Position numbers and translations under genes: made by a program
Notes under the pieces: generated by a model
Seen by the model: only the letters and a program-made list of their open reading frames with translations
Database searches by the model: none
Told to the model about the DNA's origin: nothing
Part shown: positions 2,788 to 58,090 of the stretch, piece by piece
Layout of the letters: every line of letters starts with the position of its first letter
Numbering within the stretch: the stretch's first letter is position 1
DNA from: Patescibacteria group bacterium
GTDB lineage: Bacteria > Patescibacteriota > Patescibacteriia > Patescibacteriales > JAQTRU01
Assembly (NCBI GenBank): GCA_041645555.1
Contig: JBAZPX010000001.1
Span: forward strand, 22,505 to 86,504
Length of the DNA: 64,000 bases
Reading direction: 5' to 3'

Positions 2788-4277
<1,490 letters not shown>

Positions 4278-8190: not shown

Positions 8191-11058
8191 ATGGCGATTA
8201 AGCAATCCACCTCTGCTAAAGCTACGGTGGACAAGAAAAACAAGAAGGCGAGAAAGCCCCACGCCTCCTCCTCCGTCAAGACTACGGAGGACAAGAAGGC
8301 TTTGCGGGGCAAGCACGAAAACAAGTTGCCTAAGCGGATAAAAAAAATAAAATCCGAAGGGTTGGTTAAGGCGGCAAAAAAAGTTGATAAGGAAACCCTT
8401 CGGCAAGCTTCCGCCGACGCTAAAGCTTTGGCGGACAAGCAGGGTGAAAAAGGAAAAGGGTTAAAAGAAGAAATAAAGAAGCCTGTTTCTGCCATGCCGG
8501 AGAAAGAAAGTAAAAAGGATAAAGAGCAGCCAGGCAAAGAAGTGGCCGAGGTAGCGGAGAAAGAAGGAGAGAAAACCATAAAATCCCAGGTCGTGGACGG
8601 CCGCAAAAAAACTGAATATGGCATGGTCATACCCCAGTCAATTGTGGGAGAAATGAGTACCTGCTATCTGGATTATGCCATGAGTGTAATTGTAAGCCGG
8701 GCTTTGCCCGATGTCCGAGACGGTTTAAAGCCGGTCCATCGGCGAATCCTTTATGCGATGTGGAGTATTGGGTTGAAAGCCGGGGCTAAATTTAGAAAGT
8801 CAGCGACCGTCGTCGGTGAAGTTTTAGGCAAATACCATCCGCATGGCGATTCTGCGGTTTACGAATCCATGGTTCGTATGGCTCAGGATTTTTCAATGCG
8901 GTATCAATTAGTCAGGGGACAGGGAAACTTTGGTTCTATGGATGGCGATGGTGCCGCGGCCATGCGTTATACCGAAGCTAAATTATCTTCAATCGCCGAA
9001 GAGCTTATTTTTGATATTGATAGAAATACTGTTGATTTTATTCCTAATTATGACGGGTCGCAAAAAGAACCAACCGTCCTGCCCGCAAAACTTCCTAATT
9101 TATTGTTAAACGGCGTAATGGGGATAGCGGTCGGTATGGCGACAAATATTCCTCCGCATAATTTAAAAGAATTGGTTGACGCCATAACTTATTTGATTGA
9201 CAAGCCGGCCGCCACCGTAGAAGATTTGATGCAGTTTGTTAAAGGGCCGGATTTTCCGACCGGCGGGATTATTTATAATAATAAAGATATTTTACAGGCC
9301 TATGCGACCGGCAAGGCCGGAATCGTTATGCGGGGCCGGGCCGAAATTACTGAAACTAAAGGTGGCAATTTCCATATTATCATTACGGAAATTCCTTATC
9401 AGGTGAATAAAGCCACTTTAGTGGAAAAAATCGCCGATTTAGTAAAAGACAAAAAGATTGAAGGCATAAAAGATCTGCGGGACGAATCGGATAAGGACGG
9501 CGTGAGAGTTGTGGTTGAGCTTAAAAAGGACGCTTATCCGAAGAAAATTTTAAACAGCTTATATAAGCATACTCAGCTGCAGGAAACTTTTCATGTCAAC
9601 ATGCTGGCTCTGGTAGACGGCATCCAGCCGAAGGTTTTAACTTTAAAAATGATTTTGGAAGAATATATCAAGCACCGGGAAGAAGTGGTAAGGCGCCGGA
9701 CCCAGTTTGATTTAGATCGGGCTCGCGCGCGCGCCCATATTTTAGAAGGCTTGATGATCGCTTTGAATAATATTGACGCGGTCATAAAAACGATTAAAGC
9801 TTCCCGCGACAAAGAAGTAGCCAAAGTGAGTTTAATGAAGAGGTTTAAACTTTCCGAACTGCAGGCCATTGCCATCCTAGAAATGAAATTGCAGAGTCTG
9901 GCTAATTTAGAGAGATTAAAAATAGAAGAAGAATTAAAAGAAAAGAGGAAACTTATAAAAGATTTAGAAGAAATTCTTAAATCCCAGGCAAAGATAAGAG
10001 GAATTATCAAAAATGAAATTAAAGATTTAGCGGATAAGTTCGGTGATGAGCGCAAAACTCAGATTGTGGCCCATGGCGTAAAAGATTTTAGCATAGAAGA
10101 TTTAGTGCCGAACGAGGAAACTATGGTTACGATGACCCGGGACGGCTATATAAAACGCCTGACCCCGGATACTTTTAAAGTCCAGGCGAGAGGCGGCAAG
10201 GGCGTAATCGGCTTAACGACCAAAGAAGAAGATACGGTTGAATTTATGTTTACCACCTTTACCCATAGCGACATTTTATTTTTCACTACCCGCGGAAGAG
10301 TGTTTCAGCTTAAAGCTCATGAAATTCCGCAGGCCTCCCGTACGGCCAAAGGCACGCCGGTTGTAAACTTTTTGCAGCTTTTGGGCGAGGAAAAAATAAC
10401 TTCGGTCCTGCCTTTGGATAAAATTTCTAACAGCAAGTTTTTATTCTTTGCGACGGAAAGAGGGTTAGTTAAGAAAGTAAAATTGGAAGCTTTTGCTAAT
10501 GTCCGCCGGTCGGGTTTAATTGCCATTAAGATAAAAGGGGAAGATAAATTAATCTGGGCCAAGCCAACCGGCGGCAATGACCATATCCAATTAATTACGG
10601 CCGGCGGGCAATCGGTGCGTTTTCAAGAATCCGATGTCCGCGATATGGGCCGCAATGCCGCTGGGGTGCGGGGGATCCGGCTCAAGAAAGATGATATTTT
10701 GATTGGTATGGGAATTATCAAGGGCGACAAAGAGAAGATGAAAAAATATCAGGTCTTAACCATAATGGAGCAGGGTTTTGGCAAACGGACAGCCTTAGGA
10801 TTTTATAAAGTTCAGGGCCGGGGCGGATCAGGAATTAAGACCGCCAAGGTGACAAGCAAGACCGGCAAGCTGGTTAACGCTTTTATAGTTAATACCGAAT
10901 CTATGGAAGAAAAAGATTTAATTGTGATTTCGGAGAAGGGGCAGGTGATAAGGCTGCCTTTCAAATCCGTTAACCAATTAGGCCGGGATACGCAAGGCGT
11001 AAGGCTGATGCGGTTTAAAGAGCAAAGTGATAAAGTGGCTTGCGTAACTTGGGTGTAA
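8191..11058 (+). CDS. gyrA: DNA gyrase subunit A with ~150-aa lysine-rich N-terminal extension
   Basis: Motifs [42 protein letters not shown] (catalytic Tyr) and C-terminal beta-pinwheel repeats. The conserved core begins near aa 155, so a downstream start (about 8650) cannot be excluded. Confidence 0.9.
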
Positions 11059-14719: not shown

Positions 14720-16119
14720 AAGTTGTAAGTAAAATCATAGAATATGGTCTGTATTTGTTGGTTTTTTTGCTGCCCTGGCAGACGCGCTGGATTATTAGGG
14801 CCGGGGAGACGGAATATACGACCTATAGTTTGTATGGAACAGATATAATTTTACTTATAGTTTTGTTATTGTTTGTTGTTCTGAAATGTCAAATGTCAAA
14901 TGTCAAATGTCAAACAAAATCCCAAATCCAAAATCCCAATTTTCAAATCAAAAAATTTTGGTACTTTGTGGGGTTGGTTGACTTATTTGTTTTTATTTCC
15001 ATATTTTTCGCGAATGATAAGTGGTTGGCTCTATATAAATACGGCTGGTTTTTGCTGGGAGTAGGGTTATTTTGGCTGATGACGAGCGCGAACTATAATA
15101 AGATAAAACTGATTTGGGCTTTGTTGGCGGGAATTTTTTTGCAGGCCGGTCTTGGTATCTGGCAATTTTTATCCCAATCAAGCTTTGCCAGTAAGTGGTT
15201 GGGAATGGCGCTCCATAATCCGGCTGAACTCGGTGTTTCGGTCGTGGAAACTTTTGGGAATAATGGAATAGGAGAAAGATGGCTTAGGACTTATGGGGGA
15301 CTGGATCATCCGAATATGCTGGGAGGAATTTTGGCGATAGGTGTTTTGCTTTTGATTGGATATCTGATCAAAAAATTTTCAATTTTCAATTTTCAATTTT
15401 CAAACAATTCTAAAATTTTCAATTTTCAAACAAATGCTAAATTATTGTATTATTTTATTATTTTATTATTTTTGTTAGCGTTGTTTTTTACTTTTTCCCG
15501 CGGAGCGTGGGCTGGGCTGTTGGCTGGAATATTTTTGTTATTATTTATATTTTTAATTAAAAAAGATTTTTTGAAGCAGAGGGAATTATTAAAGATAATT
15601 TTAGTCGGGGGAATTTTGATTTTTTTCTTGTTTAGCTTTTACGGCAATTTAGTTTTGACGCGCTTATCGCAAGACACTAGGCTGGAAATAAAATCAACCG
15701 AAGAAAGAATGGCGTCTTTTTCTGAAGCCAAGATTATTATAAAAGATAATTGGCTTTTTGGAACAGGAATCGGCAATTATACTTTAGCTTTGGAAAAAAA
15801 TAATCCCGGTCAAGAAAAATGGAATTATCAGCCGGTTCATAATGTGTTTATATTAGTCTGGGCGGAAGTGGGATTCTTGGGACTTTTAGGATTCTTGGGA
15901 CTTTTAGGATTCTTGGGATGGAGTTTGATGAGGAAGAAAAAATATTTTGGGTTGTCTATTCTTATCTCTTTAGTTATAATGATGATGGTTGACCATTGGT
16001 ATTGGAGTCTGCATTTCGGGATTTTATGGTTCTGGCTCTTGGCCGGACTGATGCTGACTAATACTGACCAAGGCGGACTCGGGCGGACTGACGCGGACTC
16101 TGGGCCTATTGCAAATTAA
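14716..16119 (+). CDS. O-antigen ligase / Wzy_C-family polytopic membrane protein
   Basis: Multiple TM segments and the FTFSRGAWAGLLAG Wzy_C-type loop motif. ATGA overlap with the upstream gene. Contains several in-frame simple-repeat tracts. Confidence 0.75.
   Translation: MKVVSKIIEYGLYLLVFLLPWQTRWIIRAGETEYTTYSLYGTDIILLIVLLLFVVLKCQMSNVKCQTKSQIQNPNFQIKKFWYFVGLVDLFVFISIFFANDKWLALYKYGWFLLGVGLFWLMTSANYNKIKLIWALLAGIFLQAGLGIWQFLSQSSFASKWLGMALHNPAELGVSVVETFGNNGIGERWLRTYGGLDHPNMLGGILAIGVLLLIGYLIKKFSIFNFQFSNNSKIFNFQTNAKLLYYFIILLFLLALFFTFSRGAWAGLLAGIFLLLFIFLIKKDFLKQRELLKIILVGGILIFFLFSFYGNLVLTRLSQDTRLEIKSTEERMASFSEAKIIIKDNWLFGTGIGNYTLALEKNNPGQEKWNYQPVHNVFILVWAEVGFLGLLGFLGLLGFLGWSLMRKKKYFGLSILISLVIMMMVDHWYWSLHFGILWFWLLAGLMLTNTDQGGLGRTDADSGPIAN
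14884..14950. repeat. heptamer tract (aaatgtc x4) followed by aaatccc/aaatcca words, inside the ligase ORF
   Basis: Read directly; encodes KCQMSNVKCQTKSQIQNPNFQ. Confidence 0.9.
15374..15430. repeat. heptamer tract (aattttc x4, then x2), inside the ligase ORF
   Basis: Read directly; encodes FSIFNFQFSNNSKIFNFQ. Confidence 0.9.
15871..15918. repeat. 18-nt tandem repeat ggattcttgggactttta x2.7 (GFLGLL x3)
   Basis: Read directly. The word gggattcttggga recurs at 21343-21355, with the variant gggattcttagga at 43746-43758. Confidence 0.9.
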
Positions 16120-16144
16120 ATAGGAATATTATAATATAAAATAA

Positions 16145-16439
16145 ATCGCACCTTATAGTGAGCCAGTCGGAGAGAAAACAAGAGTGATTCCCTTATGAAG
16201 CATCGGCGAGCGTCTTTAGCATCGCCTAAAAGCCGTGATGCGATCTCGGTCTTCTAATACGAGAAAATGGGGAACAGCCCAAACCAGTTAATATTCTGGG
16301 GTCGTAGGGTCCTTGGCTTTAGAGTTAAAAGTCGGGAGTGATCCCGGCCTCTACAGGGAGACCCTGAGTAGGAGACTTCGGTCTCTGAATTTGCCACGTT
16401 AAAGTGGTAAGGCTAAACGAGACTGGCTCTCTTGTTTTT
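16145..16439 (+). ncRNA. candidate structured non-coding RNA, class not recognised
   Basis: Lies in a 640-nt gene-free gap. TTGCAA-N15-TATAAT at 16109-16135. Closing helix 16160-16168 / 16421-16429. GUGA-capped hairpin 16331-16348, UUCG-capped hairpin 16371-16386 and hairpin 16394-16407. A terminator follows directly. The tetraloops only make sense on the plus strand. Confidence 0.45.
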
Positions 16440-16470
16440 GAGGCGTTCTGCTTGCGGAACGCCTCTTTTA
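16440..16470 (+). terminator. intrinsic terminator after the ncRNA candidate
   Basis: gaggcgttc / gaacgcctc stem followed by TTTTA. Confidence 0.55.
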
Positions 16471-16516
16471 ATTGTATTCTTGGTATAAGAGGGATTAGAG
16501 CGGACTGCACCACTTT

Positions 16517-16693
16517 GTCATTGCGAGGAAGGAGCCGGGGCGACTGACGAAGCAATCTCGGGTTAGCTGAAAAAACAAGATAATTAAGAATAAGCTATTT
16601 GTTAAAATTAATGTTGATAATAAGTGTTTAATTAAATTAAATGTTACACTTTTAAACCAGAGATTGCTTCGTCGTGCGACTCCTCGCAATGAC
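16517..16693. repeat. inverted pair of 'gtcattgcgagga...cgaagcaatctc' elements flanking ~100 bp of AT-rich DNA
   Basis: Left copy 16517-16559 and right copy (reverse complement) 16660-16693. A third copy lies at 31411-31463. Confidence 0.8.
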
Positions 16694-16761
16694 AGGAGGA
16701 AAGGGATTTCTCACATAATATAAATAGTATAATAGAATCTCAATAATCTTAATAAGAATTT

Positions 16762-18024
16762 ATGTATAAACAAAAAAAATTAAAAAACGGTTTAAATTTA
16801 ATAACCGTGCCCATGACCGGGACGAAAACCATAACGATTTTGGTAATGGTTAAAACCGGGTCTAAATATGAAAATAAGAAAAATAACGGCATTTCCCATT
16901 TTTTAGAGCACATGTTTTTTAAAGGAACGAGAAAGCGGCCGACGACTTTAGCGATTGCCGGCGAACTTGATAAAGTTGGAGCGGAATTTAACGCTTTTAC
17001 TTCAAAAGAATATACGGGCTACTTCGTAAAGGTTGATAGTTCAAAGATAAAATTGGCAGTTGATATTGTGAGCGACATGCTCTTAAACTCTAAATTCGAC
17101 CCAAAAGAAATTGAGCGGGAAAGAGGGGTAATTATTGAAGAAATAAATATGCGCCACGACAACCCCATGATCCATATTGAGGACGTTTTTGAAGAGTGCC
17201 TTTACGGCGACAGTCCGGCCGGCTGGGAAGTGATCGGGGAGAAAAAAACTGTCTTGAAACTATCTCGGCAGGATTTACTTAATTATATAAAATCGCAATA
17301 TGGAACGGGTAGCGTAATTATCTGCTTAGCCGGCAATATTAAGGGCGGTAGTGAAAAGTTAATCAGCCGTTATTTTTCCCGTTTAGGAAAAACAGATTTT
17401 AAAGATAAAGTAAAAATAAAAGAAAAGCAGGCAAAGCCGCAAATTAAGATTTATTATAAAAAAACCGGGCAGGCCAATATTTCTTTGGGGGTAAGAGGAA
17501 TTCCGGTCGGCCACAAGGATGAATTTATTTTAAAAGTTTTATCTATTATTTTGGGCGGATCAATGAGTTCCCGCCTGTTTACGGAATTAAGGGAAAGAAA
17601 GGGTCTCGCTTATTACGTCCGGACCCAGGCCGAGTTTTACACGGATAGCGGCTATTTAACCACGCAGGCCGGCGTGCCGGTCGGGAAAGTTACCGAAGCC
17701 ATAAAAATAATTTTAGCTGAATATAAAAAGCTGAAAGATGCCTTAGTGGGCGGCAAAGAATTAAAAAGAACTAAAGATTTAATCCGCGGCCGCTCGGTAA
17801 TAAAGCTAGAAGCGTCTGACGATATGGCCGGCTGGTATGCGGAGCGGGCAATTTTGGAAGGTAAGGTTTTACCGCCGGATAATTTTTTTAGAAAAATAGA
17901 CGAGGTAAAGGCCAAAGATATAAAGGCCGAAGCGAAAAAGATTTTTGTAAACAAATGTTTAAATTTAGCCATCATCGGGCCGTTTAAAGATAAAAAAAGA
18001 TTTGAGAGGATTTTAAAGTTTTAG
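16762..18024 (+). CDS. M16 (pitrilysin/insulinase) family zinc peptidase
   Basis: HFLEHMFFKGT (HxxEH inverted zinc motif) and the two-domain length typical of M16B. Confidence 0.85.
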   Translation: MYKQKKLKNGLNLITVPMTGTKTITILVMVKTGSKYENKKNNGISHFLEHMFFKGTRKRPTTLAIAGELDKVGAEFNAFTSKEYTGYFVKVDSSKIKLAVDIVSDMLLNSKFDPKEIERERGVIIEEINMRHDNPMIHIEDVFEECLYGDSPAGWEVIGEKKTVLKLSRQDLLNYIKSQYGTGSVIICLAGNIKGGSEKLISRYFSRLGKTDFKDKVKIKEKQAKPQIKIYYKKTGQANISLGVRGIPVGHKDEFILKVLSIILGGSMSSRLFTELRERKGLAYYVRTQAEFYTDSGYLTTQAGVPVGKVTEAIKIILAEYKKLKDALVGGKELKRTKDLIRGRSVIKLEASDDMAGWYAERAILEGKVLPPDNFFRKIDEVKAKDIKAEAKKIFVNKCLNLAIIGPFKDKKRFERILKF

Positions 18025-18142
18025 ATTTAGCAAGATGAAATATTAGAGGAGAGGCCTCTGGCGTTTCTCTTTTTTTATTTGCTGATTTAATGATTATTAG
18101 CTATGATTATAGTATGGACCCGCCTCCGTCCCGCAATTTTGC

Positions 18143-31410: not shown

Positions 31411-31463
31411 GTCATTGCGAGGACCCCGTCCCGCTTTGGTGGGACGGGAGACGAAGCAATCTC
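31411..31463. repeat. third copy of the 'gtcattgcgagga...cgaagcaatctc' element
   Basis: Same termini as 16517-16559, but the internal hairpin differs (ccccgtcccgctttggtgggacgggag). Confidence 0.8.
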
Positions 31464-56512: not shown

Positions 56513-56590
56513 GAATTCTTGTTAAATTGCTAAATAGTTTAGTTTTAAAATACGTAAATTGAACAGTTAAACGAAATTTTGTTTTTTACA

Positions 56591-56923
56591 ATAAAATATT
56601 TTGAGGGGGTTAAAAAAGGAGGAAACAATGAAACAAGGAAAAAATCTGCAAAAAAGATTTACCATTGATACTGTATGGGTATATGCAAAAGTATGGTTCA
56701 AATTTTCTTTTTGACCGATTATATTACTATTGGCCGTTTATCATTTCGGTATGCCCTTCGGGTTGCCTTTAAAATTAGGCATCTTACTCGGAGGGATGGC
56801 GCTCCTATTCATAACGTCTGGAGCGCTAATTAATTTCATATACTACATCGGGAACATAAAAATTCCAAGAATCTTATAACCCCTAGGGGAATGCAAATTC
56901 CCCTCCCCCTCAAAGTATTTTAT
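56591..56923. mobile_element. 333-bp unit bounded by 19-bp terminal inverted repeats (MITE-like), containing two mini-ORFs
   Basis: ataaaatattttgaggggg (56591-56609) against the reverse complement of 56905-56923 (ataaaatactttgaggggg), with 1 mismatch. Inside lie an AAGGAGG RBS plus a 28-codon ORF (56628-56714) and a 42-codon hydrophobic ORF (56751-56879). Confidence 0.45.
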
Positions 56924-56996
56924 GGTGTTGCCTATTTGGTAAACGTTATCTGCTGATAGAAATTAAAATCTGAAATCCGAAATCCGAAATTAATTT

Positions 56997-57081
56997 GGAG
57001 AGGTCGCCTAGTGGCCGATGGCGCGCGCTTGGAAAGCGCGTATACCGCAAGGTATCGAGGGTTCGAATCCCTCTCTCTCCG
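56997..57081 (+). tRNA. tRNA-Ser (anticodon GGA), class II with long variable arm
   Basis: Hand-folded. Acceptor GGAGAGG/TCTCTCC, 3-bp D stem with GG in the loop, anticodon loop UUGGAAA, variable arm ATACC-GCAA-GGTAT and T arm GAGGG-TTCGAAT-CCCTC. Discriminator G; CCA is not encoded. Confidence 0.9.
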
Positions 57082-57109
57082 CCGTAGAAAGGTTTTATTG
57101 GATAAATTC

Positions 57110-57649
57110 ATGAGCACGAGAAAATTATTAAGAAAATGGAAGTATCCATTAATATTTCTAGGTATAGTAATTTTATTCGTTTTAGGTTGGAGATTTCGCC
57201 CCAGTGCGATCGATTTTGGGCCTTTTGAATTAGCGCCAATACCAAATAATACTGAGACAATAGAAAGGCCATACTTAGGTATTACAGAGATAAAAATTAA
57301 GGAAATGTCACCAACAAATCTAGTCATTGAAAGTACTCTAAAAAATACTGGCACAATTCCTGCGAATAACATCAAAATTTTACCTTATTACACCATTAAT
57401 GGGAAAGAGAAAACCAATCTTTTAATAGAAAACTTGCCCACATATCTTATGCCACAACCCAGTTATGCTACATATATTTTGAGAATTGGGGGACATAATT
57501 TTAGCCAACTTGATCTGAAAAATGTTTTTATTTTGACCTTAAAAATCAGTTATGATGGACTTACAACCAGCGATTATACAACTACCGTGAGTGCAAAATA
57601 TAACTCCGTCGATAGAGCATTTGATATAACTGGTGGGGATATTGATTAA
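57110..57649 (+). CDS. hypothetical membrane-anchored protein within the tRNA-flanked segment
   Basis: ATG at 57110 (MSTRKLLRKWKYPLIFLGIVILFVLGW...). The track ORF start at 57011 overlaps the tRNA and is rejected. Confidence 0.55.
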   Translation: MSTRKLLRKWKYPLIFLGIVILFVLGWRFRPSAIDFGPFELAPIPNNTETIERPYLGITEIKIKEMSPTNLVIESTLKNTGTIPANNIKILPYYTINGKEKTNLLIENLPTYLMPQPSYATYILRIGGHNFSQLDLKNVFILTLKISYDGLTTSDYTTTVSAKYNSVDRAFDITGGDID

Positions 57650-57788
57650 TCCTCCGCCCAAGTACTTAATTCTAAGACAAAAAATGTACTAAAATACGCT
57701 TGCGGGATTTGAGTCTGCGGATACCTAACTTGAATGTCCGGCACATGATGAAATGATGCCTAGAGCCCCATTTCGGCACCGAGGAGTT

Positions 57789-57807
57789 TTCGAATCCCTC
57801 TCTCCGC
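57789..57807 (+). repeat. duplicate of the tRNA-Ser 3' end (att-like direct repeat)
   Basis: ttcgaatccctctctccgc against tRNA positions 57062-57082 (ttcgaatccctctctctccgc). It is identical apart from a 2-nt tc deletion. Confidence 0.8.
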
Positions 57808-57829
57808 TTTTAAACTATCCCTGCTTTTA

Positions 57830-57838
57830 TGTTATAAT
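57830..57838 (+). promoter_or_regulatory. extended -10 promoter element (TGtTATAAT)
   Basis: tgttataat read directly, about 40 nt upstream of the ATG at 57880. Confidence 0.4.
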
Positions 57839-57879
57839 TTAATTACAGAGCTAACTCTGCAATTAATTGTTTTTGCCTT

Positions 57880-58086
57880 ATGGCGCGCAAGAAACTAGAA
57901 GAAAGAAATATAAGAAAATTGGCTAAAGTTGGCGGGAAAAGAACCTATAGCCCTACTTTGCCGATTGAGGCAGTCAGGGAATTTGGCTGGAAGGAAGGCC
58001 AGAAGGTGGTTGTTGAAGTGGACAAAAAGAGGCAAAGGTTTATAATAAAAGACTGGCCCGTCTCATCGGCGGACAAGAGGAAATAA
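57880..58086 (+). CDS. AbrB/SpoVT-type (MazE-like) DNA-binding domain protein
   Basis: 68 aa. GGKRTYSPTLPIEAVREFGWKEGQKVVVEVDKKRQRFIIKDW fits the swapped-hairpin AbrB pattern. No toxin partner is adjacent. Confidence 0.6.
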   Translation: MARKKLEERNIRKLAKVGGKRTYSPTLPIEAVREFGWKEGQKVVVEVDKKRQRFIIKDWPVSSADKRK

Positions 58087-58090
58087 TCAT

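Follow-up and report, generated by a model that had tools for sequence, protein, structure and literature searches.

A strongly diverged segment resembling 23S rRNA domain I in the 3' untranslated region of an O-antigen-ligase-family gene of a Patescibacteria group bacterium

We show here that a segment of about 292 bp (~16147-16438, plus strand) in a 64-kb window of a Patescibacteria group bacterium genome (the window is the whole stretch of DNA analysed, 64,000 nucleotides) is homologous to domain I of the bacterial 23S rRNA, of which it appears, from covariance model alignments, to be a strongly diverged partial copy running from the 3' strand of helix H11 to just past the closure of H14. 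The segment is confined to this species, where it is placed between the stop codon of an O-antigen-ligase-family (Wzy_C) gene and the terminator belonging to that gene. We regard it, with slightly more than even confidence, as a passenger derived from a bacterial large subunit (LSU) rRNA and devoid of a ribosomal role. The original prediction had described this DNA as a structured RNA of unrecognised class, a description that the homology to the LSU family, which had not been among the families checked at the time, does not bear out. The segment is an oddity and not a new class of RNA, and no relatives of it were found.

Homology to domain I of the bacterial 23S rRNA

In a cmscan search of a slice of ~300 nt, positions 16150-16417 (plus strand) matched the family LSU_rRNA_bacteria (RF02541) at model positions 198-470 of 2925, with 39.2 bits and E=1e-10. 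A second, untruncated alignment covered 16250-16416 (plus strand, model positions 236-469; 32.3 bits, E=2.6e-8). Model positions 198-470 correspond to the part of 23S domain I that goes from H11 (3' strand) to H22. Both scores are below the gathering score of 50 bits, and these E-values establish homology without making the segment an rRNA gene; the cmscan comparison with Rfam proposed in the original prediction gave a significant match to a known family, although one that stays under the gathering score. The segment accounts for ~270 of the ~2,900 nt of an LSU rRNA, far from a complete gene of ~2.9 kb with domains I-VI and the peptidyl-transferase centre.

Rfam scans of ~300 nt run with laxer filters than scans of longer stretches. 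At the gathering threshold, Rfam gave no LSU match for the segment in the whole 64-kb window, and at E<=10 only chance-level matches appeared on 16050-16800 (751 nt). These blank standard scans, which at first seemed to speak for novelty, are a filter effect. They also serve as a warning, since default-filter Rfam scans missed an LSU-like segment that reaches E=1e-10 at ~300 nt, and diverged rRNA-derived segments may be overlooked routinely and mistaken for new RNAs.

The conserved blocks follow one another in rRNA order (AGAAAACAAGAGUGAUUCCC, GGCGAGCG, GGGGAACAGCCCAAACC, GGGGUCGUAGGG, CCCUGAGUAGG, CUGAAU, AAGGCUAAA), and the first of them (J11/12-H12) is identical to an Arthrobacter 23S rRNA at 24 of 25 positions. 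The junction nucleotides are the best-kept parts of the segment, with the sequences GAUUCCC, GGCGAGCG, GGGGAAnAGCCCAAACC, GGGGUnGUnGG, GAGUAGG, CUGAAU and AAGGCUAAA all retained. The relationship also holds in the reciprocal direction: in four of five LSU rRNAs, the best match of a covariance model derived from the core of the segment fell on the homologous domain I site (E between 7e-4 and 0.02), and in the fifth (L023) it fell near that site, with E=0.13.

Similarity to LSU rRNA was found nowhere else. Four control slices of similar size, among them the two flanks (15860-16150 and 16466-16765), gave zero LSU matches, and Rfam found no further LSU match elsewhere in the 64-kb window. A scan of the other structured gaps (1-240 and 56640-56996) for rRNA-like pieces was likewise negative, so that the idea of a 23S gene scattered in pieces is without support. 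The likeness of the segment to LSU rRNA is detected by covariance models only and not by sequence searches: its local alignment to the Escherichia coli 23S rRNA is not significant (29 of 200 shuffles scored as well), and nhmmer with four real LSU rRNA sequences did not detect it. The extent of the divergence can be seen in the score per position, 0.15 bit/nt for the segment versus 0.97 bit/nt for the 16S rRNA of the same organism, whose gene is canonical and unlinked to any 23S gene.

Predicted fold and end-to-end pairings

Positions 16140-16470 (plus strand) fold with a minimum free energy of -121 kcal/mol (z = -3.8; 0 of 100 shuffles were as good), the minus strand of the same stretch has z = -3.2, and the GC content of the segment is 0.52 versus 0.41 across the window. 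The segment can adopt an rRNA-like fold in which all drawn pairs (73 of 73) are canonical, some of them G-U pairs that fit the plus strand only. The helices come in the order of 23S domain I (H12, H13, H14, H16, H18, H21, H22), and the alignments, the drawn pairs and the reciprocal model agree on the canonical domain I helix order, pairing and junction sequences.

The equivalent of H13 (16189-16273, plus strand) has a 5-bp base, UCCCU/GGGGA, and keeps the conserved GGCGAGCG, which a branched insertion of ~57 nt (hairpins 16200-16241 and 16245-16263) buries in pairing. H14 (AGCC/GGCU; 16276-16414, plus strand) encloses H16, H18, H21 and H22. According to the RF02541 alignments H16 is shortened (16284-16299, plus strand) and H21 is cut to 6 bp plus a UUCG loop (GGAGAC-UUCG-GUCUCU; 16371-16386, plus strand). 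H18 is simplified (16306-16365, plus strand), with H19/H20 missing, and ends in a tip hairpin with a GUGA loop (GUCGGGA-GUGA-UCCCGGC; 16331-16348, plus strand), while in H22 (16393-16408, plus strand) the loop GUUAAA replaces GGACCA. The real bacterial 23S sequences compared here have an open H13 loop (GGCGAGCGAA), the H22 loop GGACCA and the helices H19-H20, all of which the segment lacks. Compared with bacterial 23S domain I, then, it shares helix order, junction sequences, strand and canonical pairs, but it is without H19-H20, its H16 and H21 are shortened, its H22 loop is changed and its H13 loop is branched; in addition, it sits in the 3' untranslated region of a protein gene, and its H11 3' strand pairs downstream.

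This downstream pairing closes the structure. On its 5' side, the closing helix P1 is formed by AGUGAGCCAGUC (16157-16168, plus strand), a stretch homologous to the H11 3' strand of the rRNA, whose normal partner is missing from the segment; a downstream stretch, GACUGGCUCUCU (16421-16432, plus strand; found by repeat search), pairs with it instead. P1 has 9 bp (16160-16168 with 16421-16429) and, if one mismatch is allowed, reaches 12 nt (16157-16168 with 16421-16432). An alternative pairing of 10 bp joins AAAACAAGAG (16175-16184, plus strand), which belongs to the J11/12-H12 block, to CUCUUGUUUU (16429-16438, plus strand; repeat search). The two helices cross, overlapping by 1-4 nt, so that on their predicted geometry both cannot fully form. 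In shuffled sequences, perfect end-to-end complementarity of at least 9 bp occurred in 0.4-0.6% of cases and of at least 10 bp in ~0.1%. Read as its reverse complement, the 3' tail reproduces both 5' blocks with their order exchanged and a GAG shared at the joint. Template switching during insertion would leave such a pattern; selection for closure is equally possible.

The architectural part of the original prediction stands. Sequence reading and the repeat search recovered the long-range helix (16160-16168/16421-16429), the competing 10-bp pairing and the hairpins capped by GUGA and UUCG, together with the smaller plus-strand hairpins (16205-16226, 16245-16263, 16284-16299, 16394-16407). The terminator is present as well, the fold is more stable than that of shuffles as given by its z of -3.8, and the plus strand has a real multi-helix, RNA-type architecture.

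Insertion site and search for relatives

The neighbouring genes code for RmuC, an unknown protein, the O-antigen-ligase-family protein, an M16 peptidase and a UvrD-like helicase-nuclease; none of the genes near the segment is ribosomal or related to ribosome assembly. Protein genes lie on both sides, the ligase-family ORF ending at 16119. We obtained nine loci of relatives (L001-L009) through homologs of the M16 peptidase (71-91% identical), and the segment is absent from all nine syntenic loci, where the gap between ligase and peptidase measures 20-360 nt and has no similarity to it. In the closest relative (L005), a homologous terminator follows directly after the stop codon of the ligase-family gene. 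Given this empty site and the absence from the other relatives, we infer that the ~292 bp are a species-specific insertion into the 3' untranslated region of the ligase-family gene. On the right, the insert ends where the ancestral terminator begins, and its left edge is approximate (16120-16150).

The terminator scan places an intrinsic terminator at 16440-16470 (plus strand), with an 11-bp stem (16440-16465) followed by TTTTAATTGT. It is homologous to positions 1827-1864 of the L005 locus (score 38 versus 18.8 +/- 3.7 in shuffles, 0 of 300 as high) and, judged from this alignment, is ancestral to the ligase-family gene and outside the insert. A terminator and promoter belonging to the RNA itself, as originally proposed, are therefore unsupported. 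The promoter-like TTGCAA-N15-TATAAT does exist (16109-16135, plus strand), but it is weak: the promoter scan did not report it, its spacer of 15 nt is outside the 16-18 range, and its -35 box is inside the upstream ligase-family ORF. A similar TTATAAT stands at the corresponding position in the closest relative, which does not have the RNA; this likeness is not statistically significant.

The inverted repeats of 9-12 bp lie inward of the estimated ends by 10-13 nt and 6-9 nt, and no duplication was recognised at the edges. GCGGACTG, present on both sides, was considered as a target-site duplication and set aside, its left copy being part of a coding tandem repeat; the right copy is in a stretch that aligns loosely with the L005 spacer (by eye, at about half of the positions) and is possibly ancestral. 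Public contigs of the same strain are identical in the segment and thus show zero variation, and two assemblies break within it, at 16286. As the original prediction said, there is no credible ORF in the gap; those present are all of 47-76 aa, and the public contigs have none annotated there. Looked up by exact match, the ligase-family protein and two antisense ORFs had no record.

No donor of the segment was identified in the searches made, nor any homolog with conserved structure and covariation in the syntenic loci, in pattern scans of genomes, metagenomes and viral contigs, or in BLAST searches of phages and plasmids. A pattern of the conserved blocks retrieved only genuine LSU rRNAs and one chance match from 185,579 species genomes and the JGI metagenomes, five scans of viral contigs gave chance matches or nothing, and BLAST found nothing in phages and only a 25-nt match to a real 23S rRNA in plasmids. 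A second copy was not found either in the 64-kb window or in ~85 kb of the loci L001-L009 (BLAST, nhmmer and covariance model). The exact 24-mer starting at 16286 had no match in the metagenome collection, nor did it retrieve the JGI contig of the organism itself. Conservation in relatives, which would be expected of the RNA originally proposed, thus fails in nine of nine syntenic loci and in the wider searches. This absence of relatives is weak evidence, since the pattern searches required exact matches at 23 chosen positions, metagenome-assembled genomes are often without rRNA genes, and the organism's own JGI contig is outside the collection.

Origin, possible role and the rest of the gap

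As an rRNA-derived passenger, the segment would most likely stem from the capture or duplication of an rDNA-like sequence and would lack a conserved function, other than, at most, that of a stabilising structure in the 3' untranslated region. Plus-strand transcripts would contain it as the 3' end of the ligase-family mRNA, or would start at the weak promoter-like site, and would stop at the ancestral terminator. The RNA would fold by itself into the rRNA-like structure because its orphaned ends pair through P1. It would probably take no part in the ribosome, considering that the H22 GGACCA loop and H19-H20 are lost and that the GGCGAGCG of H13 is buried. Against a passenger speaks the fact that every helix is intact despite the distance from all the LSU rRNAs seen here, including the H13 extension and the GUGA-capped tip of H18, which are missing from real 23S rRNAs. 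Long neutral decay in place would break pairs; hence, either the donor was already like this or selection is acting. The complementarity between the two ends (9 bp with P ~0.005 and 10 bp with P ~0.001 in shuffles) counts against a passenger too, since an RNA that folds on its own would require it. Among known cases, orphan or partial rRNA gene fragments are comparable in being pieces of rDNA outside an rRNA operon with the rest of the gene missing. They are usually close copies of the organism's own rRNA that decay without keeping the structure, whereas the segment, very distant from every LSU rRNA seen here, has kept its helices unbroken and gained a new closing one.

The same observations leave some room, in our opinion clearly the smaller share, for a functional free-standing RNA that mimics rRNA, that is, a paralog of the 23S domain I junction with an evolved closing helix that acts in trans. 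Its helices have stayed intact through deep divergence, new well-formed helices with GNRA and UUCG caps have appeared, the junction nucleotides are the best kept, the end-to-end pairing is very improbable by chance, the GC content is above the genome level, and a promoter-like site upstream and a terminator downstream frame it. Nevertheless, the segment is missing from all nine syntenic loci without a homolog elsewhere, it occurs once, there is no ribosomal or assembly gene nearby, the terminator is borrowed and the promoter weak. H19-H20, which carry the contacts with uL4 and uL24 in the 23S rRNA, are deleted. A role such as that of a decoy or binding platform for a ribosomal protein or assembly factor, with two conformations through the 10-bp pairing, is equally tentative. 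The full scenario, in which the junction enclosed by H14 was copied out, remodelled (helices trimmed, H13 extended, ends joined) and kept in a CPR bacterium as an autonomous non-ribosomal RNA, a putative decoy or platform, seems to us doubtful. If true, it would reveal an rRNA-derived class of non-coding RNA hidden by standard Rfam filters. Should expression and conservation of the segment be established, a large rRNA sub-domain would have been recruited outside the ribosome, with a bearing on the origin of structured RNAs by duplication of parts of existing ones. The rRNA-mimicking leaders of ribosomal-protein operons (L1, L10, L20, S15) also reproduce rRNA structure outside the ribosome. However, such mimics are tens of nucleotides long, of convergent origin and located in the 5' untranslated region of the gene they regulate, whereas the segment is a homologous whole sub-domain of 270 nt in the 3' untranslated region of an envelope gene, with no ribosomal gene in its neighbourhood.

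It is rather improbable that the segment is a small, non-autonomous, MITE-like element derived from rDNA and mobilised through terminal inverted repeats. Like MITE and REP insertions, it is a discrete, species-specific piece of ~290-bp with inverted repeats of 9-12 bp near both ends, and a palindromic repeat element has also entered this intergenic region, with other palindromic elements there in relatives; two assemblies break inside it at 16286. However, multiple copies are expected of such elements and the segment is single-copy as far as visible, both in the 64-kb window and in the ~85 kb of relatives' loci. The inverted repeats stop short of the very ends, no target-site duplication was recognised (the flanking GCGGACTG being a coding tandem repeat on the left and possibly ancestral on the right), and the interior is a multi-branched rRNA fold and not a simple foldback.

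A truly new class of structured RNA, unrelated to known families, is very improbable. The silence of Rfam (both at the gathering threshold and, for the 751-nt stretch, at E<=10) and the blindness of nhmmer with four real LSU rRNAs would agree with it, but the matches under laxer filters (E=1e-10 and 2.6e-8) have blocks and helices co-linear with LSU rRNA, and the reciprocal covariance model lands on the same site in real LSU rRNAs; unless the alignments are artefactual, these results refute it. The original prediction was right in that the region is none of RNase P, tmRNA, SRP RNA, 6S RNA, T-box, TPP or cobalamin element (Rfam, ARAGORN), and neither these RNAs nor any riboswitch had an Rfam match even at E<=10. 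In the window, ARAGORN found only a tRNA-Ser and no tmRNA.

We give just as little credit to the idea that the segment regulates the downstream M16 peptidase gene in cis, as a riboswitch or attenuator leader. The segment is upstream of that gene on the same strand and combines two mutually exclusive pairings with a terminator, but the terminator, which is that of the upstream gene, has a stem that neither pairing reaches, ~290 nt (repeat element included) separate the segment from the peptidase start codon, and the orthologous peptidase genes have no such leader, nor was there a riboswitch match. Least probable of all is a separately encoded piece of a split 23S gene that is assembled into the ribosome: the segment is a complete sub-domain closed by a helix, as processing stems are, in a genome whose 16S gene is unlinked to a 23S gene, but its score over 268 nt is only 39 bits, against a canonical 16S, its H13 and H22 loops are altered and H19-H20 missing with respect to the bacterial 23S rRNAs compared, and close relatives do without it at this locus. 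The 23S rRNAs of CPR bacteria have been reported to lack only H9, H63, H78 and H98, so that the region of the segment (H16-H22) is not among the known losses (PMC9297842).

The second half of the gap is filled by a palindromic repeat element (16516-16694), separate from the rRNA-like segment. Hence, the 640-nt gap, originally described as unusually long and gene-free, is not a single long RNA gene but is made of two insertions and a short ancestral spacer, and a false lead is closed: the "unknown RNA" gap is an rRNA-like fragment plus a palindromic repeat. Relatives carry other palindromic elements at the same intergenic site. In the element at 16516-16694, two copies of a ~45-nt unit face each other in inverted orientation across an AT-rich loop; a solo copy of this unit is found at 31411-31463.

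Similarity to domain I of 23S rRNA

The gap at 16120-16761, between the end of a Wzy_C (O-antigen-ligase family) gene at 16119 and the start of an M16 peptidase gene at 16762, carries on its plus strand a segment of about 292 bp (16147-16438) within what had been predicted to be a structured RNA of unrecognised class. Rfam searches of the whole window at the gathering threshold, and of 751 nt at E<=10, returned no relevant match. When the scan was limited to 16150-16440, which makes the filters of the tool laxer, the segment matched LSU_rRNA_bacteria (RF02541; 39.2 bits, E=1e-10, model positions 198-470), and scanning 16105-16475 yielded an untruncated alignment to RF02541 at 16250-16416 (32.3 bits, E=2.6e-8, model 236-469). 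The supposedly unrecognised class thus has a significant match to a known family. No LSU match was obtained with any of four slices of equal size taken as controls from the flanks and from other structured gaps. As a methodological by-product, a significant rRNA match was hidden by default filters.

The RF02541 alignment is co-linear from the 3' strand of 23S helix 11 (H11) through H22 and AAGGCUAAA. After the H11 strand come J11/12 and H12 (AGAAAACAAGAGUGAUUCCC, identical to Arthrobacter 23S at 24 of 25 positions), the base of H13 with GGCGAGCG, GGGGAACAGCCCAAACC with H14, H16 and then GGGGUCGUAGGG, H18 and then CCCUGAGUAGG, H21 and then CUGAAU, and finally H22, followed by AAGGCUAAA. All 73 pairs of the rRNA-like structure drawn on the fragment are canonical, several G-U pairs being compatible with the plus strand only. 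In the reciprocal test, the fragment core (16264-16420) was made into a covariance model and searched against five LSU rRNAs. Its top match fell on the homologous site of domain I in four (L022, E=7e-4; E. coli, 9e-4; L015, 2.5e-3; L017, 0.02), and the fifth (L023) matched near that site with E=0.13. Sequence-only methods miss the similarity to LSU rRNA, which is why the fragment seemed unrecognisable. We consider its identity as an rRNA-derived segment well supported.

The H16 hairpin (16284-16299, CCAG-UUAAUAUU-CUGG) shares its 8-nt loop with hairpin 1386-1401 in domain III of E. coli 23S (1445-1460 in our E. coli sequence, L014; CAGG-UUAAUAUU-CCUG), the stems being unlike; the common loop may be a coincidence or a shared loop motif.

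Scans with an exact 24-mer and with a pattern of the best-conserved blocks, using the short H21 spacing of the fragment, found only genuine LSU rRNAs (an Ignavibacteria 23S, another bacterial 23S, an organelle-like LSU and a eukaryote-type LSU contaminant) and one chance match. No relatives appeared in viral, phage and plasmid collections. This absence is suggestive, not conclusive, since such scans recover exact matches only, rRNA genes are missing from many MAGs, and not even the organism's own JGI contig is in the metagenome collection. Two short contigs of an Actinoplanes solisilvae assembly (L015, NZ_RJAC01000067.1; L016, NZ_RJAC01000119.1) carry eukaryote-type LSU rDNA (CCCGTCTTGAAACACGGACCAAGGAGT), probably a contamination.

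Folding and departures from genuine 23S rRNA

Sequence reading and a repeat search recovered every structural element of the original prediction: the 9-bp long-range helix (16160-16168 with 16421-16429), 12 nt long if one mismatch is allowed; the competing 10-bp pairing (16175-16184 with 16429-16438); the GUGA-capped (16331-16348) and UUCG-capped (16371-16386) hairpins; four smaller hairpins (16205-16226, 16245-16263, 16284-16299 and 16394-16407); and the terminator (16440-16470), which a terminator scan gave as an 11-bp stem followed by a T-run. The promoter-like TTGCAA-N15-TATAAT (16109-16135) is there as sequence, but its spacer is short, it lies partly within the upstream ORF and the scan did not call it. 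The predicted folding energy of the plus strand is -121 kcal/mol (z = -3.8), and GC content peaks at 0.52 in the segment region versus 0.41 in the window.

Lacking an upstream partner in the segment, the 3' strand of H11 pairs with a stretch just beyond the closure of H14, forming a helix that joins the ends (P1, 16157-16168 with 16421-16432). Among shuffles, about 0.5% reached perfect end-to-end complementarity of at least 9 bp and about 0.1% of at least 10 bp; the segment contains one pairing of 9 bp and one of 10 bp. Read as its reverse complement, the 3' tail is AAAACAAGA followed by GAGCCAGUC, the two 5' blocks in swapped order with GAG in common. Since the two helices cross and overlap, full formation of both is impossible.

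The fragment is homologous to 23S domain I and would work like it. By its score, completeness and conserved loops it does not qualify as an rRNA gene. It scores only about 0.15 bit per nt, versus 0.97 for the organism's own 16S. It lacks H19-H20, its H18 is capped by the new GUGA hairpin, H21 is reduced to 6 bp and UUCG, H16 is shortened, the H22 loop reads GUUAAA where the genuine bacterial 23S sequences compared have GGACCA, and the H13 loop motif GGCGAGCG is buried inside an approximately 57-nt branched extension. H9, H63, H78 and H98 are the only losses reported in a survey of CPR rRNAs (PMC9297842), so these changes are not the normal CPR condition. Nor does the segment resemble r-protein leaders, short elements located in the 5' UTR of the operon to which they belong. 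Ordinary rRNA pseudogenes are usually close copies that decay, and the segment differs from these as well.

Origin and possible role of the segment

Nine syntenic loci were retrieved from relatives through M16 peptidase homologs (71-91% identity). Gene order is conserved: RmuC, an unknown gene, the Wzy_C gene, the M16 peptidase and a UvrD-like helicase. Their ligase-to-peptidase gaps measure 20-360 nt and show no similarity to the segment, so the conservation by which the original prediction was to be checked is absent from these loci. In the closest relative (L005), a terminator homologous to that at 16440-16465 (similarity score 38; shuffles 18.8 +/- 3.7) stands within about 15 nt downstream of the ligase-family stop codon. 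This empty site indicates an insertion of the segment, in this lineage, that separated the stop codon from the terminator belonging to that gene. Judging from this comparison, the terminator, previously assigned to the RNA itself, was not brought by the segment, and probably neither was the -10 box.

The locus is not an assembly artefact, because it is identical in four public contigs. Two of these (L011 and L013, from two sources, JGI 3300028028 and Logan SRR8449812, which may represent one sample) have an identical peptidase gene and start exactly at 16286, inside the rRNA-like segment. The shared start suggests a graph branch, caused by a variant or by a k-mer common with other sequence such as real 23S.

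On balance, we lean towards a passenger: rDNA-like sequence would have been captured or duplicated into the 3' UTR of the upstream gene, where it would be transcribed together with that gene and fold independently, the ribosome making no use of it. The segment is species-specific and without family in the collections scanned, its terminator is borrowed and its neighbours are unrelated genes. These points weigh against the main rival, a functional free-standing rRNA mimic, which we regard as unlikely, although every helix is unbroken in spite of divergence, the new helices are well formed and the ends are joined. A MITE-like element is improbable. A leader of the peptidase gene is highly improbable, and so is a truly new RNA class, given the RF02541 match. 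Least credible is a piece of a split 23S gene.

Neighbouring genes and other structured elements

The window comes from a Patescibacteria (CPR) genome, the homologs of the flanking peptidase being named Patescibacteria or Falkowbacteria by their sources. It contains one tRNA and one 16S rRNA gene (2789-4277, minus strand, 1450 bits); no 23S, 5S or tRNA adjoins the latter, so the rRNA genes of this genome are unlinked. The 3' part of the Wzy_C gene has a tandem repeat with an 18-nt unit (GGATTCTTGGGACTTTTA, about 15872-15925), of which public contig L010 probably has one copy fewer, being 18 nt shorter from 15500 to 15990 (461 vs 467 aa). The C-terminal tail holds three copies of a 10-nt unit (GCGGACTS, 16073-16100); the corresponding place in L005 is taken by another 10-nt repeat (ACGAAT...). 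A 47-nt non-coding block (18072-18118) upstream of the UvrD-like helicase-nuclease gene shows 84-96% identity across all nine relatives and probably represents a conserved promoter or leader. Relatives have an additional gene between peptidase and helicase (acetate kinase or a 223-aa protein) that this genome lacks.

The second half of the gap is occupied by a palindromic repeat element (16516-16694) unrelated to the rRNA-like segment, in which a unit of about 45 nt (GTCATTGCGAGGA...GACGAAGCAATCTC) forms an inverted pair flanking an AT-rich loop. A solo unit lies at 31411-31463, and related pieces are intergenic in two relatives (L001, about 9956-10074; L003, about 9566-9712). L001 and L006 have a different palindromic element in the same ligase-peptidase spacer. 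A long, very stable hairpin at 105-195 (-89 kcal/mol for 2-201, z = -8), in which runs of G and of C abound, gave only chance-level microRNA-type matches in Rfam and is probably another palindromic repeat element. Upstream of tRNA-Ser(GGA), region 56713-56912 is structured (z = -5.1), with no Rfam match at E<=1. The tRNA aside, 56513-58090 contains no long ORF that was considered a gene; the tRNA itself is covered by two ORFs (147 and 212 aa) that overlap each other.
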